Shown here in pieces: positions 28,364 through 63,800 of a stretch of DNA of 64,000 bases; within the stretch, counting starts at the first letter, position 1, and every line of letters starts with the position of its first letter. The DNA is from Phoronis australis (Eukaryota; Animalia; Phoronida). The notes beneath the pieces were generated by a model that saw only the letters and a list, made by a program, of their open reading frames with translations, was not told where the DNA came from and searched no databases. The position numbers were made by a program, and so were the translations under genes. The stretch spans positions 1,083,475-1,147,474 of the forward strand of contig NMRA01000057.1 of NCBI GenBank assembly GCA_002633005.1, read 5' to 3'.

Positions 28364-28529
28364 CAGGGGTGGATCTAGGATTTTGAGTTGGGAGAGCAGA
28401 GCACGAGCCGAGTATTAGCCAGAATTTTGCCCGTCAGACACTCGCACCCCCGAACTAGTGCCAAATGTAATCTAAGAGAATTCTAGGAGGGGGCATGGCC
28501 CCCTTGGCCCCCCTCTAAATCCGCCACAG
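28364..28529 (+). mobile_element. MITE, CAGGGG(C/T)GGATC family, 5-bp TSD tcatc
   Basis: caggggtggatctagg...ctaaatccgccacag flanked by tcatc/tcatc. Homologous to 25997-26157. Confidence 0.75.
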
Positions 28530-31210: not shown

Positions 31211-31488
31211 CTGAAAGAAAAAATGGAGAAAAGTGACACCTTAGTTCACGTGCACAATTTCTAGCAACGAGCGCATTAAACTGAGACATTGTCATACATG
31301 TAGGGGTGTATAACAGCCATAAATGTCCACAGGCACTGGTACCGCTTTAGTGCACATGTTGCGGAGTCAACATGAACATGCAATAAACAGTAGATCATTA
31401 TTATACAATCTTCATACACGTGGATCATTGTTATACACTATCCATACATAAAACATTCGTTGATAGACTGACGTATGCACGTACTTAC

Positions 31489-39414: not shown

Positions 39415-39564
39415 CAGTGGCGGATTTAGAGGGTGGCCAAAGCCCCCCCAAAATTCTCCCAGATTCCATTGGGCAGTTCGGAGGTGCGAATGTCTGACGG
39501 GCAAAATCCTGGCTATGAATATGCTGCCCTGCCCCCCCAACTCAAAATCCTGGATCCGCCCGTG
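39415..39564 (-). mobile_element. MITE, CAGGGG(C/T)GGATC family, 5-bp TSD gtttg
   Basis: Reverse-orientation copy of the 25997/28364 element, with gtttg on both sides. Confidence 0.75.
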
Positions 39565-39796
39565 GTTTGTGTAATATAGCTTAGTCAAATCAATGAGAAA
39601 TCGAATGGCAAGTGACTCCTTTACATAAACATTTTTCTTCGACAAAGCGATTTCACTGTGCATATCCAGCGTTGAATTATTGTGCACCCGGCGAGTCCAG
39701 AGTTACCAAATTGCGCCATAAGCGCACAGGGTAACTTCCTAGGTCACCGTAAGAGGACACTATGTGACGGGCATTCATTGCGTTGCGTGGTCGACT

Positions 39797-39863: not shown

Positions 39864-39880
39864 GTACAGCTACGTGCTGT

Positions 39881-39920
<40 letters not shown>

Positions 39921-39972
39921 GGCCCCTGGCGCAAGGATGACACGCAAATTCGTGAAGCGTTCCAAATTTTTT
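39864..39972 (+). ncRNA. U6: U6 spliceosomal snRNA
   Basis: acatatactaaaattggaacgatacagagaagattagcatggcccctg(g)cgcaaggatgacacgcaaattcgtgaagcgttccaaattttt matches metazoan U6 (ACAGAGA box, AGC triad, oligo-T terminator). The 5' hairpin is GTACAGC-TACGT-GCTGTAC. Confidence 0.95.
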
Positions 39973-42366
39973 ACTGTTATTGCCATGATGTTATTAGTTT
40001 TCTGTTAATCCTACATTTTCAATGAGTTTGTGAGACTGTTACCAAGTTTGCATTCATTTTTGACAACACGCAGTCAATAGTGTAGCATTGGCAAAATTCA
40101 TAGTGTAGAGGAAGAATCGTCGCGTGGCAGAATATTTCATATTTTTTTCTTTTACTTTCTGCCTTTAACGTTAGGAGAATTGCCACGACTTCTGTTTTGA
40201 TATGCCGAGGAATAAAGTTACTCCAAACGAATACTAAGACAAACATTCTTATCTGTATTTACTGACCTCGTGTAATACAGTGGTTTCGAATACTCTCGTC
40301 AATTGGTATAGGTTTTAGAGGACTTTTTCAAAAAATGATGTTTAAAGAGTATCATTCAGCAAATCTTCCACACTATTTTTCCCGTCTCGCAGACACATTT
40401 CTGGGCTCGCGCACAGAGCAACCCTGCCCCGGCACATACTCCCTGCTAGTTGACAAGAGCTATTTCCGAGATACGCTCGCGCGATATTCTCTTCTCTCGG
40501 GCGACTTTACATATTAAGGTTATTTCAAACCTTATTTAGTGGCCTCTATTCTAACTCGTATATCAAAAAAACTAAGCTTTGTCAACTAGTAAAAGTACAT
40601 ATTTTCTGAAAGGGCAAAGACCAGGAAATATAAATATACTTTTTGTACTTATTGGTCATTATTATTTTTACATGTAGATATAAAATTTCTAAGCACAAAT
40701 CATCCCTCAAAAGTTTTATTTCCTCCAATATTTAATTGTTCGTTTTAACCATAATTATTTAACGACTGCTATGAAGGTATCAGATATCATATACTTGCGA
40801 TTTTGATTACAGTAGGCCATAGGCACATCTGTCCACCGTATTCGAAGCTGTGCCAATATAAAAAGTAAGCAAACCATTTCAGTAAAAGGAGCGGGGGGTT
40901 TGGTCGCAGTGGACTGGCTAAAAAAAAGGTTGGCTAAATTCACGCTCATTTCGGCACACGCACATGGGTACTTTTCCCGATTACTTGCCTGTGAAACAGT
41001 TTCTAAATTACAGTTTGTAGCGCATTGATCACCACTTTTCAGAATAACCTAAGGTGTTTAGTTGAGGGGCAAAGCACTCAGTAAAAAGATCCATTTAAAC
41101 AATAAAAAAGGTCCTTGCTGAACTTAAGTTATGTTATTACATGCCTAATATACACCTCATTTCTTAACAGAAAAACATATATGAAAAAAGTCTTTATGAA
41201 TCTGCACTAGACAATGTTTTACACCAGTCGATATATTCTAAACTATTAATGAAAGTTTTGAATAACTATTCATTGCAAGTGTTTGTGAACAGGTACCACC
41301 GTACTGTCAGCGAAAAAACCTTGAGTACCGTCAGCTCAACATGCTACGAAGTCAGTGCAGTCACCAAGTCCGCGCAAAAAACAACACGCTACGCAACTTA
41401 ATTGCAGTGTCAATTCCACGGTCCCTTGAATAAGACATTGTTTTTCTTTAGAATAACATGGCAAAAACAGATGTTTCCTTCTTTCAGAAACTACTTTTGT
41501 TCATGACAGCTCAGAATATGTCGCGGCAATTTTCAATTTTGACACACGCATGATCGTTGTAGTTATCAATCCTGCCGACTGCAGGTGTTGCAGTTTTATA
41601 ATGGCGGTCACTCGAGATCGGCTGCCGCAAATGAACACCTCATAAAAACGGTGAATGCGTGAATAAAAAGAGCCTAATCGGTACAAGTAATACATTTTTG
41701 GAGGATTCAGAAAATATTAATATCAAGAATGTACGTTAATGGAGTCAGATTGTAAACAATAAACCGGATCAGAGTATTTAGGCAAAAACTGTTGTTCTCT
41801 TTTTTCCATTTTCCTTGGACCCACGCCGGTGTCGTGTCCAATAATGCATCTTTTCCAATGATGAATACAGAGGTGGTTTGCGTGGTCTGCGCATGCGCCA
41901 GTTTTTCGGCTTCCGGTTTTTGCTCAATAGTGCATCCAAGCATAGATTATAGACAACAGATTCGCAACTCCGGCATATTCTTACGAGCTGAGTTGACCTC
42001 TAATGACCTATCTGCTGCAGTTTCCGGTCAGTTTTAATTTGACGAGAAATACCTGCATCTACTTTACTGTCCAAAACAGCGAAAAAAACATTAATTTATA
42101 TTATTTTCGGTATTGAAACGCTTTTAAAAGTCTTTCAATAGTAGAAGTGTTGGTATTGTGAGTACTTTTGGCAATGCTACTGGTAATTAATTTCAAAATT
42201 CAAACTTCGGTTCCGACCCTTTATGTCGTCTGCTTGCCCAATAGCAGCATAGTTATCGGACAGTTTTTGATTTACGGTTCACATAGGCCGCCTACTGAGA
42301 AAACTACGAAAGCGTGTTGATAAATCAACATTCTCAAGTGAGCAGTTCTTCTGGGAAGTGTTGAGT

Positions 42367-42427
42367 GGCCCTTAAAAGGGCCGTTGGTTGTAGGTATAGC
42401 GTGAAATGGTTCTTAAAAGAACCGTTG
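42367..42427 (-). promoter_or_regulatory. Two tandem replication-dependent histone mRNA 3' stem-loops
   Basis: The minus strand reads caac-GGTTCT-TTTA-AGAACC (42423-42408) then ccaac-GGCCCT-TTTA-AGGGCC-ac (42382-42367). A purine-rich cagaagaa follows about 13 nt downstream (HDE-like). Confidence 0.8.
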
Positions 42428-42454
42428 AATAATTCAACATAAATCACACAGTAT

Positions 42455-43260
42455 NNNNNNNNNNNNNNNNNNNNNNNNNNNNNNNNNNNNNNNNNNNNNN
42501 NNNNNNNNNNNNNNNNNNNNNNNNNNNNNNNNNNNNNNNNNNNNNNNNNNNNNNNNNNNNNNNNNNNNNNNNNNNNNNNNNNNNNNNNNNNNNNNNNNNN
42601 NNNNNNNNNNNNNNNNNNNNNNNNNNNNNNNNNNNNNNNNNNNNNNNNNNNNNNNNNNNNNNNNNNNNNNNNNNNNNNNNNNNNNNNNNNNNNNNNNNNN
42701 NNNNNNNNNNNNNNNNNNNNNNNNNNNNNNNNNNNNNNNNNNNNNNNNNNNNNNNNNNNNNNNNNNNNNNNNNNNNNNNNNNNNNNNNNNNNNNNNNNNN
42801 NNNNNNNNNNNNNNNNNNNNNNNNNNNNNNNNNNNNNNNNNNNNNNNNNNNNNNNNNNNNNNNNNNNNNNNNNNNNNNNNNNNNNNNNNNNNNNNNNNNN
42901 NNNNNNNNNNNNNNNNNNNNNNNNNNNNNNNNNNNNNNNNNNNNNNNNNNNNNNNNNNNNNNNNNNNNNNNNNNNNNNNNNNNNNNNNNNNNNNNNNNNN
43001 NNNNNNNNNNNNNNNNNNNNNNNNNNNNNNNNNNNNNNNNNNNNNNNNNNNNNNNNNNNNNNNNNNNNNNNNNNNNNNNNNNNNNNNNNNNNNNNNNNNN
43101 NNNNNNNNNNNNNNNNNNNNNNNNNNNNNNNNNNNNNNNNNNNNNNNNNNNNNNNNNNNNNNNNNNNNNNNNNNNNNNNNNNNNNNNNNNNNNNNNNNNN
43201 NNNNNNNNNNNNNNNNNNNNNNNNNNNNNNNNNNNNNNNNNNNNNNNNNNNNNNNNNNNN
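42455..43260. other. Assembly gap
   Basis: Run of about 806 N. Confidence 1.
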
Positions 43261-45083
43261 AATGGAATTCCTCATCATGACGGCGCAAGCGGAATTCTCT
43301 GTCGGCGTAGCTGTAATGATGAGTTTTGATGATTCGTTTGTCGTGACTGGTCTATACCACTCATGGTGGAGTAACTAGGGTTCAGTGTAGTGCTCTGTAT
43401 GTAGACAGAGGTCATGAGCCTTGCTGATTCTTTTTCAGTCAGCTGTAAGCAGTCAGGCATCTGAAAAGGTAGAAAATTGTGCCGGGGCGGTGGAGCAAAG
43501 CACTGATGAGTGGTGAGATATTTCAAACTAAGAGCAGACGTTAGAATTTACGAGTGTTAGATTGTTTGCATTCTGAGCTGTGGTATCAAGCATTTTTGCA
43601 TTTTGTATGGCTTTGTCTTTGTTTGCTTTCTCTGTGAGCTTGGGCTCAGCATTTGAGTATGGTAAAAACCATTGTCTGATGTCAGCTCAACATTTGAGTG
43701 TGGTGAAATCATGTGCTACTATTGTTTTAGCTCTAGTCAAAACACGGAGTCCTGTTTACCGTCTGGTTGTGCTAAAAAGAGGAAGTTAAAGGAAGATGAC
43801 ATTTTGGGTGACAAGTCGACGAAAGCTCCGCGCAAATCAGAGCAGACAGGGAGCAGTGTTCAGGTTTGCAATTTTTTCTGTTAGCATTGACGTGTATCAT
43901 TTATAAGTCGAGAAAAAGTTGCATTGGGGAAAACTGAAATTGGATGCTGAGCAACACAAGAACAGAGTTTTTAAATTAAAGTACTACATGGACTGTTTCA
44001 TAATAAAGAAGCCTTTTATATGCGTTTATCTTGTGTGATAACTCGACATGTCTGTTGAGGTTAATGGCTGCATCAGCTATTATGAAAGTGTTCTGATGTT
44101 CTTAATGTTGTTACAAGTCCATATTCTGTCAAAAGAACGTACTTTTAATTTGGACCACTTGCCACTTCTTGGTAGAATTTTGTTGTCTTTTTTCAGCCAA
44201 GTGTTTTGAGATTAAGAAGTCTTCGAAAGGCAAAACCTGACCTGGAGGATGGCGAGATACTTATTAACAAAAAGTACGTAGAATATGTAAACTGAGACTA
44301 ATTAGTTCCACGATTCAATGTTCTGATAGATTTCCATTTGCAGAAGATGATTAGAACTTGATGTGTGCTTTAAAGGCACATTATCGAAAAGAAACGTGGT
44401 TCTCTGATATCAGCTTCAGTGTGGAATCAAATGTGGAGCCCTCACAGTTGCGATCTAACGTTCTGTTGGCAGAGCTAAGTCCTGCCAGATAACTGGCCGA
44501 GTACTTTAAGCGTATGTAACTAGTAAAGTTACCGACATTCATTTCAGAAAATGTCTGGCTAGAATTGATGACTTGTAATGGAATCGCAAAAATTCAACGG
44601 ATTTAATCTATCCCCTCCAACAGTAATCTCAAAAATCCTTTTTTGGCTATAAAACAATATTTTCCCTTTAAAATGTAATGGCATATGTTAATTATTCATC
44701 TTGATTGAAATTTTAATACTTAATTACTTATGTCTTTTTCAGGCGTCGCAAGTGCTGTGTGAGTATAAATTTGAGGCTTAAGACTGATAGAGTATTATAT
44801 TATTATACGTCAATTTCACCAATTCATTTAACGTACGGGTCGTACGTGCATTCAGTTTGTGTTCGGTCATCTTTCACTTCTTTTGCACAAAAACAGTTCT
44901 CAAAATTGGCGGTTTGTTTTCCCGATAACGATTTTTCAAAGACTGATCACATTCCTACAAACAATGGGAAATTTACCAAATGTTGTTTTATAACATCTGC
45001 TAAAATTAGACTTAAACTAAATCATTATTTTGTATAAGAAAATAAATATCTCTTATTCGCCTTATTGTGGTCTAAATAGATGA

Positions 45084-45649
45084 GGGCTGTTCCAGCAAAA
45101 TCGTGTGGGAGGGGGGGAAGGCAACTGAAATAAAAATTTATGGGTGGTTGCGTTTGATTTAAATTCAAAATGGCTGGTGGTCGTACTTCAAAAAAATAAA
45201 AATTTACAGGTCGTTGTTTCATTGGGCCATAAATGTTTGATGGTGGGTAATTTTAGTAAATTTTATAAACAATCTGCACAGAATCAAAAACTGAAACAGA
45301 AATGGAACTTGCAAAAAGCTCCGACTTTTTCACTCCCTCCGATCTCCTCATCCGCATGCCCATAACTCCATTTAACCACAGGTGCTCGAATTTCTCGATG
45401 GCTAATAACTGTATATAAGAAACGTATGTTTCTTAGTAATGAATGACGTTAGTGGTGACGGAGGAACACATAAACTCAAGCACCTGTGCAGTCAACCACA
45501 AGAACAAAAAAAAATTACGGGTGGTTGCATTTCAAACTTATAAAAAATTACGGGTGGTAGGCTGAAGAAATAAAAGAAAAATATGGGTGGTGGGTGCGAA
45601 AAAAAGGTGCCTTCCCCCCCCTCCCATACAGATTTTACTGGAACAGCCC
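45084..45649. mobile_element. PIF/Harbinger-like MITE
   Basis: TIRs of about 40 bp (gggctgttccagcaaaatcgtgtgggaggggggaaggca / tgccttcccccccctcccatacagattttactggaacagccc) flanked by tga/tta. Internal repeated gggtggt motif. Confidence 0.7.
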
Positions 45650-45866
45650 TTATCTAAAAATTATAGTTCAGCTTCAGTTTAAACAATTTCTGTACATAAG
45701 TAAAAAATAACGGCATTTGTCTTATATGTTAATGAATTAATATATTTACACATTGATTAATACTGTTTTGTTGTCTTTCCTTGCAGTCCTGGCATCACAG
45801 AAAGATAAGCTGAGTTGCAGACTTTGTGAGCGACAACAAGAACAATGTGCATTGTCAGTCATGTCA

Positions 45867-46736
45867 GGCCTGAGTTATGCTAGTATTTTGGCTCTCGTAG
45901 TCGGCCAAGTTTAAAGACAATTGTTTTTAGTCTTCTAGGCTTTCATTAGACACTATAAATATGTTGTGTGCCAAATTTCATAGTTGTGCTCTTGATATTG
46001 TAGATTTTGGAAGCGATTTTGATTTGAGAATGCCTTATGGGCGAGAACTTCATATTTGGCCTGAGTCATGCTAGCTTTTTGGCTCTCTTAGTCAGCCAAG
46101 TTTAAAGACAATTGTTGTTGTCTGGTAGATTTTCATTAGACACTATAAATATGTTGTGTGCCAAATTTCATGATTGTCCTCTTGATATTGTGGATTTTGG
46201 AAGCGATTTTGCTTTGACTTTGCATAAAAATGAGCAAGAATTTCATGTGTAGCCTGAGTTACACTAGCTTTTTGGCTCTCATACTCAGCCAATTTGAAAG
46301 ACAATTGTTTTTGTCTTCTAGATTTTCATTAGACACTATAAATATGTTGTGTGCCAAATTTCATGATTGTGCTCGTGATATTGTAGATTTTGGAAACGAT
46401 TTTGATTTGACTTTGCATAAGAATGAGCTAAGAATTTCATGTGTGGCCTGAGTTATGCTAGCGTTTTGGCTCTCATAGTCAGCCAAGTTTAAAGACAATT
46501 GTTGTTGTCTTCTAGATTTTCATTAGACACTATAAATATGTTGTGTGCCAAATTTCGTAGTTGTGCTCTTGATTTTGTAGATTTCGGAAGCGATTTTGCT
46601 TTGACTTTGCATAAGAATGAGCAAGAATTTCATGTTTGGCCTGAGTTATGCTAGCTTTTTGGCTCTCATAGTCAGCCAAGTTTAAAGACAATTGTTGTCT
46701 TCTAAATTTTCATTAGACACTATAAATATGTTGTGT
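45867..46736. repeat. Satellite array, ~193-bp unit, ~4.5 copies
   Basis: Units start (g/a)gcctgagt at 45867, 46058, 46251, 46445 and 46638, with the conserved core ttcattagacactataaatatgttgtgtgccaaatttc. Confidence 0.95.
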
Positions 46737-47155
46737 AGCAAACTCGGCTTCAACACTCCTATTTTGAAAACTCTGTTATTCCACCAGTACATGACAGTTT
46801 TCTGAATCACTTCATAGAGCTGCAATAGTGTTATCTCTACGATTCGATCATTTCGAGTAACCGGGCCTCGAATTCTGAGATAGGAGTCCAGGGACTGTCG
46901 CCATCTGGATGCCACAGACTTGCACCACGGAAAAGCACATTCATCTTTTCAAACAATGTCTCAAGAAGCGCTCTGGTATCAACCTGTGTTGCTGATTACA
47001 TTCTGTCTCCAACCTTACGACACCTTGCATCACAGTCTGTAGCCAGCAGGATGCGAAACTGTGGACTGCTTCAGGGTTACTGATAATTTTTGCCAGGAAG
47101 CAATAATGGGATTGCTGGATATTGCCTCATTGACGGCATACCAGCCCTTAACCTT

Positions 47156-50100
47156 TTACAAGCTCAACAACAATTCTCTGAATTTCATTCCAACTAAACC
47201 CGGAATTCCACACGGATCAACTATATTCTGAAGAGATAATGCACACGCACCACTGGAGCAGGAAACACAAGGCCTGTAGTAGGCGATTGACTTAGGTGTC
47301 CTGGTGCAAGGAGTGGCTGTCTGCTGGCTCACAGAGGGCGGCGACACCGGTATTGTTGACGGCAGCCCAAAGTCATGAACCACAGGAGCAGGAAAAACAA
47401 GCCCTGGCTTGGGCAGCAGCTTCTTTGCAGGTGGCGTTGAAAACTTGGCAGCAATTTCAGGTTTTGGTGGCAAATCCTGTTCCAATACACGCTTTTCTAA
47501 AGCCTTTTGTCTGTTATTCCACCAGTATATTACCGTTTTTTGGTTCACCTCGTACAGTTGAATGTTTGTTTCATCCATAATTCTGTCATGTCGTGTGACG
47601 AAACCACAGATCCTGTGGTAGCAGTCCAACATCTGCCTCCATCTGAATGTCCCAGGTGTACCTGATGGAAAGAAACGTTCCAGCCATTCGAACAATGCCT
47701 CAACAAGAGGGCTGGCATCCAAGTGTGTTGTTGGACCACCACAGGAACCAATAGTGGCTTTTCTCAAGCTCACCACACCTGACGCCACCGTCTGGCTTCG
47801 TTTGGAGGCAAAGCGTCCTGTGTGCTTCTGGTTTTGCCTGAACCGACGAGGGTACATAACTCTTGACTCCTTCACGGACATGGGCAATTTCTGCCAGGCA
47901 GCAATGATGCGGGTGGCCATTGCTTCAGTGATGGCTTGACAGTTTCTAGCTTTAAAAATCTCATCCGCAAGACCCTGAATTTCGGCCCAACCCATGATTC
48001 CACGTGGACCGACGGCCTTCTGAAAGAATATTAGCGCACAGTTGAGACACTAGTTTAGTGCAAAACATGACAGTCAATACAAAACGGTAAAGATTATTAC
48101 TTACATCTGCAATGACTGTGTCTGTGAAGATAGTGGTATCTGTATCCTGTTCAATAAACCCCTCGTCTTCCTCACCCTCCACCTCCACCTGGTCAAGGTT
48201 GTCAGGCACCTAAATCCATGGAAAAACGTAAATACATAATTCTGTCCAAGTATTTGATAATGACGTAGTTTTTATACTAAATTTTCATTTATTTTGAGCT
48301 ATATTACCTCTGGGTCAATGGTGGGCTGGAGCCAAACCTTTCCAGTCTGTGAGTTCAGGTACTCTATACCCAGCAGCTCTCCTGTGTATTGGGCAGGTTC
48401 CTGGCGTCCTGTGTGGCTTGTCCTGTACAACACTTTGTGTAGCCTGTCAACTTCATGACAAAGGGCATTGTCAAAGGTCCTCATATGACCTTTTTCCACA
48501 GAAGCTGCCTCAGCCCTGAGGTCGTTCCATCGACCGATACCCTCCAGCAGATATGCCTGGAAATTGGCGTCACTGGCTTTGGTACCTGTAATACAGTCAC
48601 AAAGTATTTTCACATAATAGTAAGCACAAAACTAGGATAGGGTAGCTACCGATATCTCCCTAGTGTGTCAATATTTACAGCAATGATATTTCACCAAAGG
48701 TATTCTGAGTTTACACAGTATTTATCACAATGGTCTTCTCAAACCTGACTTACCAGGCACAAACCTGTTGATATGCAGGTGAAAACTCTCTAAGGAGGTT
48801 GAACCTCTAGCACACCTGTAAACAACCAGCTCTACACCTCCTATCGTCTTGGTGCCGATCTGTGTGTATAATTGCACTCTCTCTGGGTCTTGGATGCAGG
48901 GCAGATGGTGTTGCTGCTCTTTCAAGATTACTTGTGTCAGCTCCTTGTCCACAAGGACCACACCCATGGTGTCACGTCCTCTGTCTCCACTGAATGTTTC
49001 CAGCAGCTCAGTGATGAGTTCCATGGTAGCCTCCACACCACGAGTCCTTCGCTGGCAATGAAGTTGCAGCTCCATTTTTGTGATACTTCGAGCCACTAAG
49101 GAGTCATTGACCTCCCAAATGCCTTCAGCGGTCAACTTGGCCGATTTTGCCTGTCGCAACCTCTCCAAGTCTTCAGGATCCCACTCATAGATGGCAGCAG
49201 AGACATAAACGTGGGGTAAAGGGAGTGAGTCTCGGAGCACACAGACCCGGACAGTCTCCTAATGCAGTGCCTTTTGTCAAGCCGCCAATCACCAAACAAT
49301 TCATTTATACGCTGCGAGCAGCAATCCCGATCCACGTATAAAACACTAGAGGCCGTCACATTCGCATCACTATATCGCTTCATGAGACTATCGACCATGT
49401 CGCGCGGACCTTCTCCTTCGGACTCCGTTACCACAGAAACGAGTACTTGTCCAAACTCGTTTCCAACATTGGTTACCCACATGGCAGTGTCAGCAGCCCG
49501 GCCAGCAAGTTTCTTGGTCAACTGAAATAAACGAGCCATTTTGGTACCTAACACAATACAAAAGCAAACCTTACTTAACACAACCTACAACCTTACACTA
49601 CAATTCTTATTTTCTTTTTCTTTTTATTGATGATAAGCAATGTAACACCTTCAAAGATTTGCCCATAGTTGTTCATAATCTTCAACAGCGCGGGGGAATC
49701 ACAAACAGTAATGCCTCAAGCAATGGAAGTGATACCTTTTTCGTTGAATCCATTTTGAGCACCGACCCAAAAGTGGATGTTATCTTGGCCTTGACCTGGT
49801 CCAGTGACTGTACAACATCGAGGAGGTAGAGTTGCAGGAACCATGGGTACAGTGGTACTTTCACCATCTCTGGTAGGTTAGGCGGAGTTGGCAGTATAAT
49901 CATGCCCCTGTTAGCCTGACGCTTGTAAGGTTCCACTGCCTGAAGGAACAACAGCATCCTCTCAAGGTGGCACTCACTGTGTTGTTCCAGAATTTTGTTG
50001 TGGAGCTGGGATGAGGAGTTCCTCTCTCTCATTAGTTTCACCACCTTCAGGGCACATGACAACCTAGAATGTAATTCAAAATGAAACCAACATTTTTACT

Positions 50101-53100
50101 TGAGGGCTATTGAGCCAACTGAATGGCGATTTATACACCATATTCAATAACACCTAAGTTTATAAGAAATCAAGTGCTTTGTCAACTAGGAATTTTGACA
50201 TGGAGTCCGACTACCAGCAGCAGGCCTTACTTGTAGGTTAACAGAGCTGGGAAGAGATGTCTGAAGCCAAGGCTCAATTGTTAGTATGTGTGTCGACCAA
50301 GCCGGGAACTTCTTGCGGCACCGCTTGCATTCTAGGTACTCAGTGCCGATCAGATACCATTCACTGACATCCAGCACTCGTCTGAGTGTTCGGTACATGC
50401 CAGCTTGAGTGAGGTGAAGCTGTATAAGATATGGAAGTATACAACAGTGAAGAAATGAATTGGAAGATATGCAGTCAGACGCTATCATGCTAAGCTATCA
50501 CTTTAAAAAATACCGTCTGCTAAAGTAGTTTACTACAGCACTTGCCAATGGAGACGAAATGTAAACGAAGCAATTCAAGACTATGGAGCAATGTTGACTG
50601 GGCCCATAAGTCTATCAATGTGCTGTGTCCTGGTAAGACTTCAACTCCACATCTTTATATTGGGATGTGAATGTGACGCAACCAGACCACACTGCTTCCA
50701 CAATCCCTCTCAATACTTACATCTTCCTTGTTTTGCTTCTGTCGCGACCTGCACTCTTCATCGCAAAGAAACTTTAATCCCATGGAGCGCTGCAGAGTCC
50801 ACAGAAAGAGCTTTCGCATGAGAAAGCTTTCTGCACTTTTGGGAGACTGTGAAGGTTGGGTTCAGGTGGGTGGTACCACATTCTGAGATCCTGTCTGTTC
50901 TCTGACTTCTCAGTGCGAGAACTAACTGTGTACAGCTCCTTACATAACCATTTCTGCTCCGGAAGTGTGAGAACCTCCTGCCAGGTTTTTGGAAGAGCAT
51001 TCTGTAAAAGTGACAACACGAACATCAAAAACTTTCAACTTCAAATTTGTCTCAAGTGAAGAGCTACAGCTGGCATGATTTCGACGAAGCTTAACAGAAA
51101 ACACATCATCAATAAAAAAACAAAAACTTACACTACTAGCATAAAATATATCTATAATAGAAATGCATTATGAATACAAAGAAGCAATGTTGTTTGTCAC
51201 AATTACATCCGAGTGACTGCAACTCCTGTTGTTGAGACATTACCTCATCAATGGTGACTTGTGTTGGTGGCAGAGTAAATACTTGAGGCACGTCCACATT
51301 TGGAACTGAGGGTGGTAGACTAGGTATTCGGAACAAAGGGTCAACCAGCGGTGTATCCACTAGGACCTGGTACGGGTGTTTCTGCAAAAGGGGTACAAAT
51401 GCGGTTGAGGAATACCATATGACATCTGTATTGTGAACAGTTGTAAAATATTTTGTTGATTATTAAATAACAAGCATTTAATTAAGCTGGGTTTAAGAAA
51501 CTGCTTTCAGTCTCAACGAGCACACGTAAATGAGCAGTGCACCGGAGAGGAAAACAAGTGAACTCTTATGGAGATTAATTGGTTAATGTCAATAGTACAA
51601 AATTGTTCATACTCAAATAGGTATCAATGTATCATACAAGGAAGGTCTTTGCTTTTATATTCATGATTGTTCTACTAGCAGAACGTTACAAATTAATCTC
51701 ACGTTAGCTCTCGACTCACCACACAACAAGAGAAGTGAATACCAGAGGCTACACACTAACATAGTGTGAACCAAACTGAAAAATAATGGGCTGTAAATAT
51801 GAACATTATGGTACTAGTAATTAGTTTATGGTTGCTAATCAAAACTGAAATCCACATTCCCCGTGCATCATGCTTAAAACACGAGACAAAAGTAATCAGG
51901 CAAAATATCGGCTAAATTTGTGAACACCAAAAATTATTATAGCAATTGATTTCTGGCTTAGCCATTTTTACTAACCCTCCAGTTGTCATGACCTGTGAAT
52001 TCGTGTCACTTTGTTTAACTATTTTAGGCATGTATTGTTAGACAAAGATTAACCAAGACATCAAACAAAATACCATTATTTGAAATCAGTTAGTAAGACA
52101 CATAACCATGCAGTAAGAGGGTATGGACACAATACACTGGCTGTACTTAATAAATAACTTGAGCTCATCATTTAAATCACTTGGTGACAACAGTAGCAAA
52201 ATTCAATATCGCGCTTTGAGTAAGGCCATTGGAATTAGTATTTAGAAGTACCACCACTGTATAGTGTCCACACTGAGGACATGACATCTTCAGCAAGCAA
52301 ATCTCATATACCTTTGGGAATCTGCTGCTCTATTAGCTGGGCAGCCTTGACCAAACAGACATCGTCAAGGTCCTCATCTATCTGTGGTTGGCTACTCGCT
52401 TCAGATGCCCTGGTTTTCTCCACCCTTTCTCTCTCATCTTTTAGATAGCGGTACCGGTTCGCTTGTGTCACCAATGGGAACATGTTGCAGTATCTGCAAC
52501 AAAGCATTAATTGGTATCTTCTTCAAATGCTAGAACAATGTGTACATGAAGTAACAGCAATTCTTAAGTTGATCAGAAATAGTAAACATGAACTCAAATC
52601 CTATATTGTGTACATTGTATGTACCAAAATTATAATAATTAACAAAAGTTCACCTGAGCAGGGCTTCCTTGTTATCAAACTGTGGATCTGGGCACCGTGG
52701 GATTTTCCCCTGGGACTTAGAGAGCTGGTGAGATGCCATCACCATTGTCGTCTACCCCATGTCGTTTTTCAGTAGCCACATGAAAGTTTTCCCCCTGTAC
52801 ATGCCGAACTGGAGTTCACTCATTGACAGAACTGATTCTGCATCAGAAGTGTCTCCCCCGCAGTCTCTGACTCTCTTCTTTGCATCTTCTTCCACCTAGA
52901 TTGAGCGGAATGGGGATACACATATGAGGCAACTGGAAATTATATATACCGTACATATACATATACGTATATATATATATATTGACAAACTCAGGTCCTC
53001 ACAACCGATGTCATCAAGAACACAAATAATATCAGTAATGTTGTGTGTGGCCAGTGGATTTAAGTTACTCAGAAAGTTATAGTGAGATTGATGCCAATAA

Positions 53101-53303
53101 AGAATCATTACCCTTAGTATAAATTTTAACCAGATATTAATATGCGTTTATTAAATTACCCACCTGTTCTTTCATAAGTTGCTGACCAAAGGCTTTGTTC
53201 AGTTTTTGCTTTTTGATGTTGGCAGCAACAAGCTTGGACCTGTCTGTCCTGACAAGCCGCAACTGTCTTTGAACAACACAAAATTGGGCTTTCGTGCCAG
53301 CAT
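47156..53303 (-). pseudogene. Dada-type DDE transposase, ~11 exons, disabled
   Basis: Exons with GT-AG boundaries at about 53303-53160, 52895-52654 (QFGMYRGKTFMWLL), 52493-52312, 51381-51244, 51001-50721 (MWYHPPEP), 50419-50231 (YLECKRC), 50063-49736 (VLKMDSTKK), 49521-48754 (NEFGQVL, YVDRDCC, RLDKRH, YRCARGSTSLESFH), 48585-48308 (FQAYLLEGIGRWN), 48209-48105 and 48019-47156. There is a frameshift near 49200-49240 and an in-frame stop near 52753. Confidence 0.8.
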
Positions 53304-53502
53304 TTTCTATAAGAACAATGAACTCCAGCTTCGGTCAATTATTCTTGAGTGCTTACATGTGCCCGTGCCAAGGGCATGAGGTTTGCCGAGTAGAAAAGGC
53401 CTTTAGTAATTTGTTTCCCGGCCAAAGAGTCACATGGTCATGCTTTGGCGATGGCTTTGTAATCACGAACGTTTAGCCCCTAAACCTTTTGATTGCACTC
53501 CA

Positions 53503-53760
53503 ACAGCCGATTTCATAAAGGTGGTTTAAAGTTAAACCAGGTTTAAACTGGACTTAGACCAGGTTTAATGATAATCTGCATTTCATAAAGGTGGTTTAAC
53601 TTTTAGACCAGTGGTCTTGTAAAACCTGGTTTAACTCCAGTTTAGACCTGGTCTAAGTCAGTTTTCATTTCACCAACGAGGTCTATATTCTTTAGACCTG
53701 TATTAAGATCTTAAACCATGTTTAACTTTAGACTTGGTCAGACCCAGGTTTAACTGTTGA
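53503..53760 (+). mobile_element. Harbinger-like terminal fragment (TTAAACC/TTAGACC motif array)
   Basis: gatttcataaaggtggtttaa occurs twice, with many ttaaacc/ttagacc motifs in both orientations, as in Harbinger subterminal regions. No second TIR found. Confidence 0.4.
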
Positions 53761-53887
53761 ATATGTCAGACTTTCATGGTATAGGTACAACTGAACGATG
53801 TCGCGGTGTGCAATTACGACGCAGTTTTAGAGCGAAAATGGACTATTTTCATTATTTAGGTTTACTACGACACCAGATCAAACGTAA

Positions 53888-54044
53888 CAGGGGCGGATCC
53901 AGGATTTTTTAAAGGGGAGGGGACGGTCAAGGACTTTTTGAAAGGGGGACCAAGTCAACAATTTGAAAATTATAGATTTCATATCATTAAAATCAAGGAA
54001 AAAAGGGGGATCCGGACCCCTTGACCCCCCTGGATCCGCCTATG
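53888..54044 (+). mobile_element. MITE, CAGGGGCGGATCC termini (different interior), TSD cgtaa/cgtag
   Basis: caggggcggatccagg...cctggatccgcctatg with a 4/5 TSD match. Confidence 0.7.
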
Positions 54045-54219
54045 CGTAGACCAGTACGTGCTGGAGTGTGTCCTGCGGATTCCTCAGAATACGACTGGTC
54101 GAGCAGGGCGTCATCGTCGCAAGCCCTACGGATTTGACTTAAGACAGCATACTCTGATTCTTCTGACTGAGTTCCACCTACACTGTTCTCCGATTCAATG
54201 TTGCCGGGAAGTGGTCTNG

Positions 54220-54390
54220 TGACGGTTCCAAGATGGTTCTAAATTGGCTCGAAAATGTGTGATTGGCTGCTGACGGTTCCAAGATGGTTCTAAATTGGCT
54301 CGAAAATGTGTGATTGGCTGCTGACGGTTCCAAGATGGTTCTAAATTGGCTCGAAAATGTGTGATTGGCTGCTGATGGTTCTAAGATGGC
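54220..54390. repeat. 51-bp tandem repeat, ~3.3 copies, subterminal to the Dada element
   Basis: Unit tgacggttccaagatggttctaaattggctcgaaaatgtgtgattggctgc. It begins at an 'n', so the copy number may be collapsed. Confidence 0.95.
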
Positions 54391-54412
54391 TTTAATTTCT
54401 ATTAGGCACGCA

Positions 54413-54448
54413 GATGACACGCAAATTCGTGAAGCGTTCCAAATTTTT
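54413..54448 (+). pseudogene. 3' fragment of U6 snRNA (interrupted copy)
   Basis: gatgacacgcaaattcgtgaagcgttccaaattttt is identical to 39936-39971. The upstream U6 sequence is replaced by transposon end. Confidence 0.9.
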
Positions 54449-56478: not shown

Positions 56479-58204
56479 AACAAGAGCAACGCGGAGCGTT
56501 GAAATGCGCCCACGAATGCATCACAAATGGTGTGCTTTTGGGGTTATTTATTTGTATCATAAAAAGGCCACTAGATGGCGCAAAAACGTACAAGCCATCA
56601 GAAACGGAAACATGCCATATTTCATAAAAATTGTCAAAGAACTTTAGAGAAACAAAGGAAAACAGAACAAAATGAAACTGCCTCTTGTAGGCACAGCGTC
56701 CGTTCCATCTGCCTGAAAGTCGTCGTCTATTGTTATCTTCATATAAATTCACTTACTAAATTTAATAAAGATCCTGCAGTGGGTTTTGGAGATACTATTA
56801 TGGGCGCAAAACAAAACAAAACTACCTCTAGGAGGCGCCACAGTAGTCAGTCGCCATCAGCAAACGTCTTCTTCACACTGAAAACATATATGCCAATTTT
56901 CAAAACCATACCTAGAATTATTTGGTTGATCGAGGGGTGGACGCCAAAAACAAGATTTGAAAACAGCAAAAAATGGCCACCACATGGCGCAAAATACCTC
57001 GATTCACTCAAACACAGGATGATAGCGTCATCTCACCAATAGATGCCTATATTCAAAATTTTATGAAAATCTGTTGAGGACCTTTGAAGATACAGACTGG
57101 TAAACGTAAAAAACTAAAATTGCCACTAGGGGGCACACCACTAGTCAGATCCGTCCGAAAGTCGTGTCATCCATTGTCAACATGATATACATACACTTGC
57201 TAAATTAAGTAAAGATCCTGCAAACGGTTTAATAGATACAGCCATGAGCGCAAAAAAAACTGCCACTAGGAGGCGCCAAAGTAGTCGAACTCGTCGGAAA
57301 ATAGAAAAATCGTCGTCAGCCGTCCACTTCATAGCAAAATCATACATGCAAATTTTCACAATTATCCTGAAAGCGGTTTGGTTGATAGACGGGTGGACGC
57401 CAAAAAATAGACTCGAAAAAGTTAAAATGGCCCCTAGGTGGCGCAAACTAGGTCGAATCCATCTGAAAACGGAGAAATAGCGTCGTCTCATTAACAGATG
57501 CCTCTATGTCATATTCTGTGAAATTACGTTGAGGACCTTTGAACATACAGAGGTAAACGTAAAAAACTAAAATTGTCACTAGGTGGCACACCAGTAGTCA
57601 GATCCGTCTGAAAGTCGTCGTCCTCCCTTGTTAACATCATATAAATACACTTACTAAATCCTGCGAACGGTTTAGGGGATACAGCCATAGGCGCAAAAAA
57701 ACAATACTGCCACTAGGGGGCGCCACAGTAGTCTAAGTCGTCCGAAAATAATCGTCAGCCGTCCACTTCATAGTAACAGCATACATGCCAATTTTCACAA
57801 TCATCATTTGAGCGGTTTGGTTGATAGAGGGGTGTGGACGCAAAAAAACAGACTCGAAACTAGGTGGCGCAAACTACGTCAAATCCATCCGAAAATGGAG
57901 GAACAGCCTCATCTCACTAATAGGCGCCTATATACCAAATTTTAGGATAATCCGTTCAGTACTTTTGAAGATACAGAGGTAAACGTAAAAAAACTAAAAT
58001 TGAGGGGACACAGGTAGTCGGATCCGTCCGAAAGTTCGAGCATGCCGTCCCATCCACGGAAGGAACACATGTGCAAAGTTTCATGAACATACATGTACGT
58101 CAAGGCGTTTTGGAGATAGAGCAGCGGACACCGGGCGTCGGACGGACGGACGGACGGAGATGACGGCATAATGCTTCCACATATAAATATGTGGGCTCAT
58201 AAAA
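56479..58204 (-). mobile_element. Non-autonomous Helentron (HINE/DINE-1-like) with internal higher-order tandem repeats
   Basis: aacaagag terminus with hairpin caacgc-gga-gcgttg. SubTIRs atgcgcccac (~56504) / gtgggctcat (58191-58200). Hairpin ccacatat-aa-atatgtgg and (GACG)n microsatellite at 58141-58157. Internal ~430-456-bp repeats (aaacgtaaaaaactaaaattg at ~57102, 57555, 57981). Confidence 0.8.
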
Positions 58205-58849
58205 ATGTGCTGGTCAAGCCCCGAACACACAAGGCAGTGTAGTCTAGGTGCCTTGCCACACTAACACTTATAATGTTATTGATACCTGGCCCGAGTCATT
58301 ACACATAGTTACCATAGCAGATAACCAAGAACCGGGGCTTGGAATTACCAATGACAAAAAGAGGAAAGTGTGATGTATCGTTCCACAAATAAATAGGTTT
58401 GTACAATAGAAATACTTTTGGGTTGTAAAATTTAAGTGAAGTAAAAATTTTTTGCACGAATAAAGTCAAAATAACGGTACAAAAAGAGACGAAGGAACAG
58501 GAAACTGGAAACATATTGATAAGAATTAATAAAAACCAAAAAGAGGAAATCCTTTTAAAAAGGACAATTCCAAGCCCTGAGAACAGATACAAACAGAAAT
58601 AGCGACACTTAGCATGAAAAACTTACACTGAACATCAGATAATGGCCATACGAGAAGGAAGGTGACAATCACACCCACCGGGATACTCACTTTGCCTAGA
58701 GCAAAACCAACAAGGAATCACTTGTTCATTCCTTCTAACTAATTTCAGGACATTAATAACATTTACCACTGCGAAAGTCTATTATTCTACAAAAGACACA
58801 GAAGAGTTCCTTAATAACACAATAACGCAATCTAACACCGCATACCACA

Positions 58850-60530
58850 GATTACTTTTTCGGCTTCAGCGGAGAAATCTTTTTTCTCTCCAGCAGCCAC
58901 TCAGCTGGCTTTTTACCTCCAACAAAAGGTGTCCAACCCATTCACTCACGAATGACGGCTATGGCCAAACTCTTTCGTCCTCAGCTGGTGGCAGTTATTG
59001 TACGAGTTCTGATGTTTGTATTTTGTCAGGATGATCGCGTGACTTTCTTTCTCTCATTTTTGCCTGTAATTGGTACCAGACTTTGGTATTCTGGTGCAAG
59101 CAGATAATTGTTTTGAGATCTGCTGGCTAAGTGAAAGTGGTAGCTACAGTGCCGTTGCTGGTACCTAAGTCATGCACCAGAGTAACAGGATACACAAGGC
59201 CTGGCTTTGGTAGTAGCTGCTTGGGACCCGGTGTTGATGACTTGGCTGTCATATGACGCTTTGGAAGCAAACTCTGCTCCAACACTCGAATTTTGAAAAC
59301 TCTGTTATTCCACCAGAACATGACAGTTTTCCGATTCACTTTATAGAGCTGCAGATTTGCTATCTCTACGATTCGGTCATTTCGAGTAACCAGGCCTCAA
59401 ATTCTGAGATAGGAGTCCAGAGACTGTCGCCATCTACATGTAGATGCCACAGACTTGCACCACGGGAAAGCACATTCATCTTTTCAAACAATGCCTCAAG
59501 AAGCGCTCTGGTATCAACCTGTGTTGCCGGATCACCACAAGAACTGTTCTTTCCCTAAGCTTATAACACCTTGCATCACAGTCTGTAGTCAGAAACACGT
59601 GAAAGTGTGGACTGCTTCAGGGTTACTGATAATTTTTGCCAGGAAACAATAATGGGATTGCTGGACATTGCCTCATTGACGGCATACTAGCCCTTAACCT
59701 TTACAAGCTCACCAAAAATTCTCTGAATTTCATTCCAACCTAGAATTCCACAAGGATCAACTATTTTCTGAAGGAATAATGCACACGCACCACTGGAGCA
59801 AGAACACAGGGCCTGTAGTAGGCGATTGACTTACATGTAAGTGTCCTGGTGCAGAGAGTCGCTGTCTGCTGGCTCAAAGAGGGAGGGGACACCACAGTTG
59901 TTGATGGTAGCCCAAAGTCATGCACTGCAAGAACAGGAAAAACAAGACCTGGAAGCAGCTTCTTTGGGGCTGGTATTGACAAGTTGGCAGACATTTCAGA
60001 ATTTGGTGGCAAACCCTGCTCCAGCAATCACTTCTCCAAACCCTCCGCCAGTATATGACGTTTTTTGATTGATCCCATACAGCTGCATGTTGGTCAGGTC
60101 CATGATCTTTCCTGTTGTGTGACAAGACCTCGAATCCTGTGTTATCACTCCAGCATTTGTCTCCATCTGGATGCTCCGGTATACTAGATAGGAAGGCACG
60201 TTCCAACCTTTCGAACAATAATGCTTCAATAAGAGGGTTGGCATCCACGTGCGTTGCTGGTGCAATACAAGACCTAATTGTAGCTTTCCTCTAGCTCACC
60301 ATACGTTCTGTCGCTATCTGGCTTCGTTAGGATGCAAAGCGTTCTCTGTGGCTCTGGCTCAAAAGTCTTCTAAAAAAATAATGCACTGTTGAGACACTGC
60401 AGTTTCATGGAAAACACGTAGGTCAATAGAACACATTCAAGACTATTATTTATATCTGCTTAGACTGTACCTGTGAAGATCTGTTCAATAAACCCCTTGC
60501 CTTTCCTGGCTATCCATTTCAACCTGGTCA
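58850..60530 (-). mobile_element. Second, more decayed Dada transposase 3' fragment
   Basis: 59266-59830 aligns with 46737-47290, and 59750-60530 with ~47210-48200 (VMFWWNNR, KKLLPGLVFP). It extends further 3' to a C-terminal-like FVGGKKPAEWLLERKK near 58880-58927. Confidence 0.75.
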
Positions 60531-60534
60531 AAGT

Positions 60535-60855
60535 TATCAGATGTGGCCTTTTCCTCAACTCTGACAAGTTCAGGCACAACTTTAGTAATGTCTCTCCAAA
60601 ATGTAAATGTGGTGACCATCAATCGTATCCTCATATTTTCTTCAAATGTCCCCTCATCGAAAACCCGAGAGACTCATTCTTTCGTGCATTCAATGAAAAC
60701 CAATTGTTAACGCTCTCAATTCTTGTAACAATATTCCTACTAGAGTTACATTATTATTGAATGGTAGTCCTAACCTTGACCTCGTTCTCAACGAATATCT
60801 CCTAAGCAACGTTAGTAAATTTTTATGTACCGTTTATCAATATTGTTGCATCTGA
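60535..60855 (+). mobile_element. LINE ORF2 C-terminal fragment (CR1-like group)
   Basis: Reads IRCGLFLNSDKFRHNFSNVSPKCKCGDHQSYPHIFFKCP..., then LLLNGSPNLDLVLNEYLLSNVSKFL in another frame. This is the typical C-x-C-G..H-x-F-x-x-C-P LINE tail; it truncates the second Dada fragment. Confidence 0.65.
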
Positions 60856-63800
60856 TTTCCCTACATGAATCTGTACATATTTTTATTTTTATATATCTGT
60901 AATAGCATGTTTAAGTATTGGAATACTTATTTTAGGTATTACTTAATTGTATATACCTCTATGTACATGTATATTAGTTTCATTTATGAATTGTTAAAAC
61001 CCAGATATAATGCTTCGCGGTTTCTGGGTTTGTTATTATTTCTTTGTATGTTCTGTGTATTCTTCAATCAATATATATCGAAAATAATGTTAGCACTAGG
61101 AGTAAAAAGTGGGGTTACCAAGAGTAGACAGTATGCGAATCAATTGAAGTACAGAATATATCATCCATGTGTGATCATTTTTGTAGGCGGACTGTTCCAA
61201 GTCTGTTCTCAATTTGGTCTTAATCTGTTCCGAAATCGTGCAAGGATGACACACAACTTCGTAAACCGTTCCAAATTTTGTTACGATATAGTAAATAGTC
61301 CAACGCCACGGGGGCCATGTATAGTTATATCATAGACTAGGTTGTCTATGATATACTACTATATTCATTAAATTTAAGGCAGGCTGTTACAAAGTTTGTG
61401 GTAATATTTCTTGTTATAAATGATAAATAGACTAGAAAGACTGGTTCAATTTCGAAGCAAAATGTGTAATGCGATGAGGTACCTGTTGCCAAGTCTCACT
61501 GGTTACGTAACTCACAGGCATACATCTGGTGAAACGGAAGGCCTCTAAGACAAGGAGACAATAGCAATAGTTGCTAATAAAATACAAAAACTTGCCTTGC
61601 CGTGTACTGTAGGCTAAATATAACTGGAAAATTATGGAGTCGGGATGGGATGCATGTAGACGGTGGCGATGAAATTAATGAAGCAGACCTTAATTTCAAA
61701 TTTCACAGTCTGGACAACCTCTTACTGAAATTCCCAAATAAATATTCAAAACAAACGGCTTTTTATCCATTTAAACCCAATTTTCCAACCCACACTTACA
61801 ATTGTTAATTTTATTGCGTTTTTCTTTCCTTTGGTATGTCAGTGGGTTTCAAAAGAGTAGTCGCTTGAGAAGTTTGCAAAAGCTAGCTTAGCGACATTTT
61901 CTGAGTCACCTTTTTTCTCCCATACACCACCCTAATTGCAAACGAGTAAAACACAGCTTCTTAGTAATGTGTTTGATCTGTCTTGTGTAAAATTTAACCA
62001 CAAACCGGTGAATATTCCACTAATAAAATATTTCTATGACTCCAATTTTCTGTCAAAATATCAACCAAAAAAGAAATAGTAATAGAAACACAAGCTTTCC
62101 TTTTCAACGCAGAGTTTTCTTTTGCTTCAAAGTATACTTACCAATTCTCAAAAACGCCTCGAGTATCACCACTGAAGTAAACACAAAGTGCATACCTTCC
62201 ATCACCATTGGCAACCAATAGCTTGCAAGCCCTCCGTACATGGTTGGAAAACTTAACAGCGAATAAAATGAATCTCGCTAATACGATCGTTGTTTCATTT
62301 GCACGTGAAATTGAATTACTGTCATTATTTGGAATTTTTTAATTTACTAACTGCCAAATGTTCTTCTTAGGTCAATTACTTTCATATAAGAATGGTTCTG
62401 GCGTTAACAAACGTGTTATGAGGAACGAGGTTGTTTTTGGAAAAAATAGCAGTCGAAGGCAAATTGTTCCTCATTTTTGTGTGATATAAATACACCTAAC
62501 ATTTGCCATCTCTTATATATCTTCACTTCCTTCATGTTCATGCTTTTGGAACTACTTGTATGACGTCATAGGTCATCGGGTTAACACTAATGACCACAAA
62601 AATATAGGGACATTGGTCGCTTGCTCTTGTATTTTTGCATTATTATTTACCAGAATTGTTATTTATTCACCTACAATGCGTACTGTTTTTTAAAGTTTGA
62701 TTTGCTTGCGTACATTGCATGAGCGGCGCACCACAGGGAACTGGGGGGAGCTAGTTTCAGCAGCTTATTTCAGTGCTGCGCCCCTCAAGTATTGACAAAT
62801 AAATATTTGAAAGTTCCCATTTTACGCCAAGTAATGTTAAATTCAAATAATACGTCTCAGACATTGAGTATCCTTGCGCACAACTTGTTTATATACAACT
62901 TCCATTCTGCCTGTAGTGCACGTGCCGTGGCTTAGCGGTAAAGTGTGAGCTTGCAAATTGACCTATCGCCAGGATTATGGCGGACGGCTTAATTGACCAA
63001 TCAGAACAAAGCATTCTTGGCACACCTTCGTCTGTGTTTCCAAGCCGCCATTATACCCGACAAACCACACGTAGTCGAGTAAAACTTACTTTGGTCTATA
63101 GCTCAAGAAATTGTCCGCTAAGAATGGGGAAACGGTGTTGATATGGTGTGTGTAGCACCGAAAGCCGTTATGCTACTCCAGAATAATATCCCGTCATTTT
63201 TTGGCATGTCCTAAGCCGAAAAATGATGTCGAAAAGCGTAAACTATGGATCAAGCTGTGTTCGGCCACACGAGCAGCTGAACTTAACGATGTTTCTTGAT
63301 AACTCGAAGGCTATAATAAACACAAATATGTTAGTTCCAAGATACGCACTTTTCAGCTTGGTGGCTATGGTGAAGGGCTATCTCAGGCTCCCGAGTTTCC
63401 TACGTCTGGCCGCCTTTGTCTCGACACCTGGTGGATCTCAGCACTCTAGCGGTAGAGTCCCCAGAAATTGTTGTTTTCAAGGACATTTTTATTTTATTTT
63501 TTTTTTATTTATTTCATCCTAACAGAGGTACATTTTTGTTATTCATAAACCCGTAGGCTGGCGTTCAACTGAACTTCTCTCCCGGTCAAAATTCAGAGAT
63601 TCCATCGGCACAGGGAGGGCAACGGGATTACTGCCGGTAACTCAAAGCCCAGTGGTCGAGCTGTTGTCACTAAAAATAAACTGTTGAATTACTTTTTGAC
63701 GTGTACCTCTAGTATACACTATGTCTGTAGAGTTAGACAGAGCTCATTTTGATGTTGTTCAAACATGATATGTAGATTTATGAAGCTTTAAAAAAGAATT

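Follow-up and report, generated by a model that had tools for sequence, protein, structure and literature searches.

The window analysed here, a stretch of 64,000 nt from the genome of the phoronid Phoronis australis (contig NMRA01000057.1), contains two copies of a Dada-superfamily transposon, both of them dead. At the published Dada-U6 site, the 5' end of either copy adjoins the 3' half of a U6 small nuclear RNA (snRNA) gene. We consider the copies likely to be two separate target-specific insertions (probability about 0.82), and it is very likely that the Dada lineage of the window targets U6. The remains themselves show how the gene is built, its lesions, where the junctions lie and where the protein falls in the tree; from them we infer the activity of the element, the duplication of its target, the independence of the two insertions and the recognition domain. 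An earlier note on this DNA had described a Dada-U6-like element caught inside a U6 gene, which is copy 1 below, and overlooked copy 2 with its U6 3' half as well as the tandem duplication of the last exon. U6 targeting and an 11-exon gene are already known, so that any novelty is limited to a separate branch with its ends and, perhaps, to the host group. The two copies and the U6 sequences are as follows.

46737-54407, minus strand: copy 1, Dada transposon, dead; transposase gene left of the first U6 3' half
58850-61237, minus strand: copy 2 overall, internally deleted; adjoins the second U6 3' half
39864..39971, plus strand: intact U6 snRNA gene (Rfam RF00026, 104.7 bits, E 3e-26)
39929-39934, plus strand: Dada-U6 target word within the intact U6 gene (nt 66-71)
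54408..54412, plus strand: putative decayed target word at junction 1; 4/6 positions match, and two U6 bases are lost before the match resumes at nt 73
54413..54448, plus strand: first U6 3' half (nt 73-108), beside copy 1; 0/36 mismatches to the intact gene; Rfam 23.9 bits, under the gathering score
54449..55223, plus strand: genomic 3' flank of the first U6 half, paralogous to 39972-40890 (89.5% over 590 nt, 86.7% over 233 nt; 90.3% over 545 nt)
61238..61280, plus strand: second U6 3' half, beginning exactly at the target word (nt 66; 5/6 bases); 6/43 mismatches

The Dada-U6 site is given as the 6-bp word GCGCAA at nt 65-70 of U6 (PMC3706591), which is nt 66-71 of the U6 gene here. Both U6 fragments of the window (2/2) start at this word or 1-2 nt past it, with the element opposite to U6 in both. 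The abutment on a broken U6 that had been claimed for copy 1 holds in that the U6 3' half matches at 36/36 positions and starts within 2 nt of the published site; the junction itself is decayed. As this half retains its genomic 3' flank, it is a copy of the gene, and a U6 retrocopy is ruled out. It carries no change in 36 positions although its flank is ~10% diverged from that of the intact gene (0.903^36 ~ 0.025, calculated by hand), suggesting that conservation of this U6 copy lasted up to an insertion of fairly recent date. The 3' flank of the second half is weakly homologous to the other U6 flanks (~70% over 86 nt); 0/1436 tiles reach its score. The intact U6 gene has an unusual 5' stem-loop, one G more than the Rfam consensus just before the target word, and a TATA-like box ~30 nt upstream.

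Copy 1 carries a multi-exon transposase gene on the minus strand, as had been proposed. Homologue-guided modelling with predicted splicing resolves it into 11 coding exons between 53322 and 47262, with GT-AG borders in 10/10 introns. Its parts, from the 5' end, are:

53164..53322, minus strand: exon 1 as modelled, true start uncertain (AG/GT sites; alignment to homologue P0276 begins at 53196)
52654..52895, minus strand: exon with the N-terminal Dada domain (QFG.Y.G..F.WLL.ND.G); 42% to P0276, E 1e-24
52754, minus strand: in-frame stop inside the N-terminal Dada domain exon
52312..52493, minus strand: exon (AG/GT sites; alignable to homologues)
51244..51381, minus strand: exon, low-complexity linker, probably frameshifted, the least certain of all
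50721..51001, minus strand: exon with the start of DUF6729 (PF20499, E 3e-8) and the first two CCCC-finger Cys (50765, 50753); frameshift near 50850
50231..50419, minus strand: exon, DUF6729 (PF20499, E 5e-15) and the last two finger Cys (50329, 50320); frameshift near 50280
49736..50063, minus strand: exon carrying the first catalytic D (49750); PF20499, E 2e-14
48754..49521, minus strand: exon with the second D (49332), DxxH (49278-49269) and E (48790); frameshift near 49204; 492 homologues at E<=1e-5
48308..48585, minus strand: exon 3' of the catalytic E exon
48105..48209, minus strand: exon, acidic linker, with a counterpart in copy 2
47262..48019, minus strand: last exon, module 1, the C-terminal domain, open frame; 45% to sea-cucumber P0167, E 6e-63
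46737..47261, minus strand: module 2, a decayed tandem duplicate of the last exon including its splice acceptor; 68% to module 1, its end cut at 46737

The DDE triad is present with DxxH after the second D, and the three catalytic codons (49750, 49332 and 48790) fall within 1 nt of the coordinates proposed earlier. The spacing of 68 between the first and second D is found in 107/123 homologues. The DxxH motif, which had been read as RLDKRH, lies at 49278/49269 in a mutated form: both middle residues of DKRH are changed with respect to the DIWH/DVWH of 207/235 homologues having the motif, and a frameshift-aware alignment places a deletion of 5 residues directly before it. The N-terminal CCCC finger has spacings of 4, 41 and 3, compared with 5, 35 and 3 in Dada-U6_DR. 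Pfam recognises DUF6729 (PF20499) only, in three exons. This domain is the CCCC-finger region of Dada transposases, and many 'uncharacterized' fish and invertebrate proteins bearing it are Dada. The top six matches of the N-terminal domain are all proteins of the fish U6-like clade, and none of the fetched proteins is homologous to either of two candidate upstream exons (54200-54044 and 53505-53323).

The gene of copy 1 is a pseudogene. Frameshift-aware alignment to three relatives locates the stop (52754) and three frameshifts, at about 50850, 50280 and 49204, with a probable fourth near 51350. Other elements have inserted into the copy or replaced its 3' end.

45859..46736, no strand assigned: 193-bp tandem repeat, 4.6 copies, in place of the copy 1 3' end (Tandem Repeats Finder (TRF) score 1367; identity to copy 2 stops at 46737)
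53889..54041, no strand assigned: small element inserted in copy 1, with terminal inverted repeats (TIRs) read from the sequence

The 193-bp repeat is likely part of another element. Together with a second tandem-repeat element at 56619-58204 (~450-bp unit, with a GGAC microsatellite and a short hairpin at its end), we take it to resemble Helentron-associated non-autonomous elements. The TIR element is presumably a miniature inverted-repeat transposable element (MITE); relatives lie at 39417-39565, 28363-28527 and 25995-26155, and these three match each other, their kinship to 53889..54041 being judged by eye. Further small inverted-repeat elements are at 45077-45656, 58336-58578 and 53523-53733, making at least 3 families overall, two of them nested in Dada copies. 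A 12-nt U6-like match at 58374-58385, considered as a lost 3' end, was rejected on finding that it lies inside one of these elements (~58336-58578).

Copy 2 retains the 3' part of a related gene and a 5' end, with an insertion between them.

58850..60540, minus strand: 3' part, with acidic exon, module 1, module 2 and C-terminal zinc-finger exon; 80.6% to copy 1 over 1124 nt
60545..61080, plus strand: insertion within copy 2; its translation has a C..C..H...C end motif and matches 0 Pfam families
61167..61237, minus strand: 5' terminal region, homologous to the 51-bp repeat unit of copy 1

From its end motif we take the insertion to be a likely 3' tail of a long interspersed nuclear element (LINE). 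The zinc-finger exon keeps 3/4 ligands (C 58993, H 58963 and C 58924, the first Cys being lost) and matches the sea-cucumber proteins P0167/P0168 (E 3e-10), with the same longer H-to-C spacing. In copy 1 this finger has gone along with the 3' end.

The last exon is duplicated in both copies (46737-47261 and 59120-59790), while 0/130 homologues with this domain have two. The copies are 21-25% different in module 1, where there is an excess of third-position changes (64 vs 31 and 30) and more synonymous than non-synonymous differences per site (pS 0.34, pN 0.14; Fisher p 8e-7, 203 codons). The ratio dN/dS is 0.23-0.36 (0.36 over the 203 codons). Module 1 has thus diverged under purifying selection, indicating two once-active subfamilies and pointing to two insertions. 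In module 2 the copies reach 91% identity and have lesions in common, and codon bias is small (12, 14, 19). The simplest reading is that the copies are mosaics, in which recombination between neighbouring copies would have joined a younger 5' part to an older 3' part.

The surviving element ends are also related. TRF finds 3.3 copies of a 51-bp repeat in the 5' terminal region of copy 1 (54220..54407, minus strand), which has no TIR. With 120-nt queries the ends at junctions 1 and 2 align with a local score of 36, which 0/2070 window tiles and 0/2000 shuffles reach; with 80-nt queries the corresponding figures are 10/3118 and 9/2000. CCAAT boxes in the copy 1 end lie 40, 59, 91, 110, 142 and 161 nt from the junction, and published Dada 5' ends have CCAAT boxes at similar distances, as compared by eye with the supplement of PMC8869645. 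Self-BLAST of the window found no inverted partner of either surviving end, one end being left per copy. Four words of 11-13 nt from both ends had no match in 121 published fish families, where matches could hide across line breaks.

The assignment to the Dada superfamily made by the earlier note is supported by the motifs, the spacing of 68, the identity to relatives, the tree and the fold of one relative, P0011. Searching with one exon (48754..49521) gave 492 proteins at E<=1e-5, the best 120 of which are 45-58% identical and come from fish, molluscs, echinoderms and a shrimp; the same exon also found 843 cluster representatives. Since none among the matches with displayed names is called Dada, homologues were labelled via published families. 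The residues just before the first D in the fetched proteins match published Dada-tA exactly and U6, tL, tN, tR and tY closely. The copy 1 protein is ~52% identical over 590-640 residues to proteins with published Dada motifs, so that homology to published Dada transposases is shown indirectly, via these motif-labelled relatives.

For placement we used IQ-TREE with LG+G4 and no mixture model on 37 rows (36 and the window protein) and 522 columns. The core was covered by 159/318 proteins, of which 104 were left after removal of near-copies and 36 were used. The window protein groups with P0004 and P0011 (support 100/99), outside the fish tA clade (100/99) and the fish U6-like group (100/99), and this branch forms a larger clade (100/98) with both fish groups and amphioxus P0202. 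Placing the whole window branch as sister of the fish U6-like group is not rejected by the approximately unbiased (AU) test (p-AU 0.41). In a second tree that includes the C-terminal domain, and from which 10/29 wanted rows dropped out for want of one of the two domains, the window protein pairs with Apostichopus japonicus P0167 (100/100); its C-terminal domain is 45% identical to P0167 vs 35-39% to fish proteins. In the main tree, oyster P0173 falls with the tR lineage of fish. A search for longer proteins via the C-terminal exon passed 0/1540 candidates, and a metagenome scan with P0011 found 2 loci (L001 and L002), fish Dada-tA-type by motifs, without U6 or tRNA and likely host DNA. A search of sequencing runs returned four DNA runs of one study, with no RNA run listed.

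Structure prediction agrees with these affinities. The model of P0011, the closest long relative (predicted local distance difference test (pLDDT) 80.2), best matches the ISCth4 transposase (Z 12.1, root-mean-square deviation 3.9, 269 aligned residues; Foldseek E 7e-5), followed by retroviral integrases, Hermes and P. The predicted fold of this relative would thus be IS256/hAT-like, as the motif alignment of the 2013 paper implied. The C-terminal domain of the window protein (module 1) was modelled at pLDDT 80.6, with a three-helix Myb/helix-turn-helix-like bundle predicted in its second half. Its resemblance to Myb/SANT/trihelix DNA-binding domains is weak (Z 4-5, under the tool's meaningful level), and Foldseek returned 0 matches at E<=0.001 for this model. 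A role of the domain in target recognition may be taken as a lead.

Several observations weigh against two target-specific insertions by a Dada-U6 lineage. Junction 1 is out of register and keeps 4/6 bases of the target word, so that of the two U6 fragments the one beside copy 1 does not start at the same nucleotide as the published site. No U6 5' half was found in the window outside the intact gene (probes of 18-22 nt with 4-5 mismatches allowed; the window has an 806-nt gap at 42455-43260), and no pair of target-site duplications (TSDs), one side of the target being left per copy. No TSD pair is visible because the 3' ends are lost, that of copy 1 being cut at 46737 by the 193-bp repeat. Since neither a U6 5' half nor a TSD pair survives, copy 1 is not caught inside an intact U6 gene, as had been proposed, and the window offers no copy with a 5'-U6 junction and a 6-7 bp TSD, which the earlier note had suggested looking for. 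At a query length of 60 nt the homology of the two ends falls short of significance, and the length used was selected from three. The coding remnant of copy 2 lies ~540 nt of foreign sequence away from its end at junction 2, and the two parts probably belong together. The copies are also not wholly independent, given the 91% identity and common lesions of module 2.

The label Dada-U6, which the earlier note had preferred, is likewise only partly upheld. In its favour are the U6 site and the possible sister position of the branch. Forcing the window protein alone into the fish U6-like group is rejected (p-AU 0.00117), and in core BLAST the best named full-length matches are Dada-tA-type (52-54%), not U6-type. 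The lineage labels themselves depend on short motifs preceding the first D, which were picked out by eye in the supplement of PMC8869645. A 9-bp U6-like subterminal repeat is described for all Dada-U6 families (PMC3706591); at a spacer of 14-15 both surviving, decayed ends match it at 1-2/9 positions, and anywhere within 8-39 nt the best scores are 5/9 and 3/9. The 9-mer is also missing from the 20 nt printed for a Capitella end beside a U6 3' half (Fig. S2 of PMC3706591). Invertebrate Dada-U6 proteins (Daphnia, Capitella and oyster) were not recognised among the tree rows, and for this reason the window branch may be the invertebrate arm of Dada-U6.

These observations leave room for other explanations. 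A single old U6 insertion could have been copied later by tandem or segmental duplication, so that both junctions record one event and say less about specificity. The similarity of module 2, close to the 90% identity of the U6 flanks (intact gene vs junction 1), and the position of the copies 12.5 kb apart in one orientation fit such a history; we judge it unlikely in view of the selective pattern of module 1, the merely distant likeness of the element ends, the ~70% flank at junction 2 and the contrast between 0/36 changes in the first U6 half and 6/43 in the second. A Dada of other or no target specificity might instead have come to lie beside U6 halves through deletion or one-ended transposition, of the kind that has been reported for Dada-tL and Dada-tA. 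The degenerate junction 1, the missing 9-mer and the position outside the fish U6 clade speak for it, mixed flanks are documented, and Dada-tA carries a U6-type word as a relic. It would nevertheless have to bring two diverged ends to the same site of two U6 copies in the canonical orientation, in a window with 0 tRNA genes, and we regard it as quite unlikely.

Domestication as a host gene, as for dDada of carps, would account for the clean GT-AG introns and long open stretches, and dDada also has a changed DxxH. It is very improbable for a gene that has the stop at 52754 and frameshifts, lacks 5 residues ahead of DxxH, is truncated at its 3' end and still abuts the target. That the transposase belongs to MuDR, hAT, P or Kolobok, all of which have DxxH and this fold in common, is hardly credible beside ~52% identity over 590-640 residues to proteins with Dada motifs, DUF6729 as the only Pfam match and the lack of TIRs at the surviving ends. 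Two target-specific insertions of a Dada lineage therefore remain our preferred reading.

By analogy with known systems, a DDE transposase encoded by a gene with introns and belonging to the IS256/MuDR/hAT fold class would excise the element and join it into U6 at the 6-bp word of nt 66-71, opposite to U6 and with duplication of the word. The host would tolerate such insertions because U6 is multicopy. The transposase would likely recognise the target DNA directly, possibly by the weakly predicted C-terminal helical bundle and the zinc finger. Reading of the target by protein is likely because neither of the surviving ends mimics U6, and the 2022 paper argues that the Dada protein reads the primary target sequence (PMC8869645). 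Later both copies decayed and gained nested insertions, and they likely exchanged 3' parts by recombination; their 3' ends went missing along with the U6 5' halves.

Among eukaryotic DNA transposons, Dada is the chief known example of strict sequence targeting. A branch that has only ~52% identity to the U6 and tA groups of fish and yet lies at the U6 site offers a comparison point for the recognition domain and for the order in which targets were acquired. A further reading, which we hold tentatively and think somewhat doubtful, is that the Dada U6/tA clade has a third branch, uncatalogued and associated with echinoderms, whose target is the same U6 nucleotide although it has no U6-mimicking subterminal repeat. 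If so, the clade as a whole would have targeted U6 ancestrally, which bears on the proposed origin of Dada-tA from Dada-U6; more than the four known phyla would have U6 targeting, and recognition would be by protein rather than by end mimicry. In the literature, descriptions of Dada families were found only in PMC3706591 and PMC8869645, and a Repbase or Dfam entry may exist. Both copies being dead and one-ended, they are of use as a guide to intact relatives in the sea cucumber and the host, not as a working system.

Elsewhere in the window, two tandem histone 3' stem-loops (42341-42428, minus strand; 36 bits and 22.8 bits) lie directly beside the gap at 42455-43260 (806 nt), which may hold a histone gene at a distance of 2.4 kb from the intact U6 gene. 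One host gene alone was found, represented by a long exon of a major facilitator superfamily (MFS) transporter of the MFSD4/sodium-dependent glucose transporter 1 type (30153-31211, minus strand), for which no homologue was obtained at E<=1e-20 among 1883 candidates. Its Atlas clusters are from Eukaryota, most often Mollusca or Chordata, a distribution too broad to place the host. Pfam matched 0/102 other open reading frames of the window. Between the gap and the 193-bp repeat (43261-45000) there are exon-like pieces with no Dada similarity and, in two frames tested, no Pfam match.

Compared with known systems, the window copies are closest in target and architecture to Dada-U6 (Dada-U6_DR, _DPu, _CT, _CGi and fish families), with which they share the U6 site, the CCCC finger and DDE with DxxH. 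The 2013 paper describes U6 targeting by Dada in chordates, arthropods, molluscs and annelids, and has one-sided Dada-U6 copies on record (PMC3706591). Dada-U6_DR already has 11 predicted exons and D567-D635 (PMC3706591), like copy 1 in both exon number and D spacing, which removes the novelty that the earlier note had seen in the ~11-exon structure. In zebrafish Dada-U6, as in both copies, the transposase runs opposite to U6. Dada-U6 also has a C-terminal zinc finger, which is of the CCHC type in the Dada superfamily and of which copy 2 keeps 3/4 ligands, and the N-terminal domain of copy 1 is closest to U6-clade proteins. With ~540 nt of probable LINE tail between its coding remnant and its end, copy 2 resembles the internally deleted derivative Dada-U6N1_DR. 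Three intron positions of copy 1 (same codons) are common to Dada-U6_SpAu, while copy 1 differs in an intron inside the CCCC finger and in having three fewer 3' introns, all judged by eye. Unlike Dada-U6, the window transposase is on its own branch, with the 9-mer out of register, 51-bp terminal repeats and a duplicated last exon, in two copies that are dead and one-ended.

Dada-tA of fish, which targets tRNA-Ala, belongs to the same larger clade, gives the best core BLAST and has a CCAAT box ~40 nt from the 5' end (PMC3706591, PMC8869645); the window element differs in lying at U6, on a separate branch. The closest relatives of the window protein are the Dada-like P0005, P0167 and P0168 of Apostichopus japonicus and the ENA proteins P0004 and P0011, which are annotated as uncharacterized or hypothetical and have a single C-terminal module. 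More distantly, IS256-family ISCth4, Hermes and the P element are TIR-bearing and not known to be specific for small-RNA genes. ISCth4 (PDB 6xg8), Hermes (hAT) and the P element have, like the P0011 model, an RNase H-like DDE core with a helical insertion, at ~10% identity.

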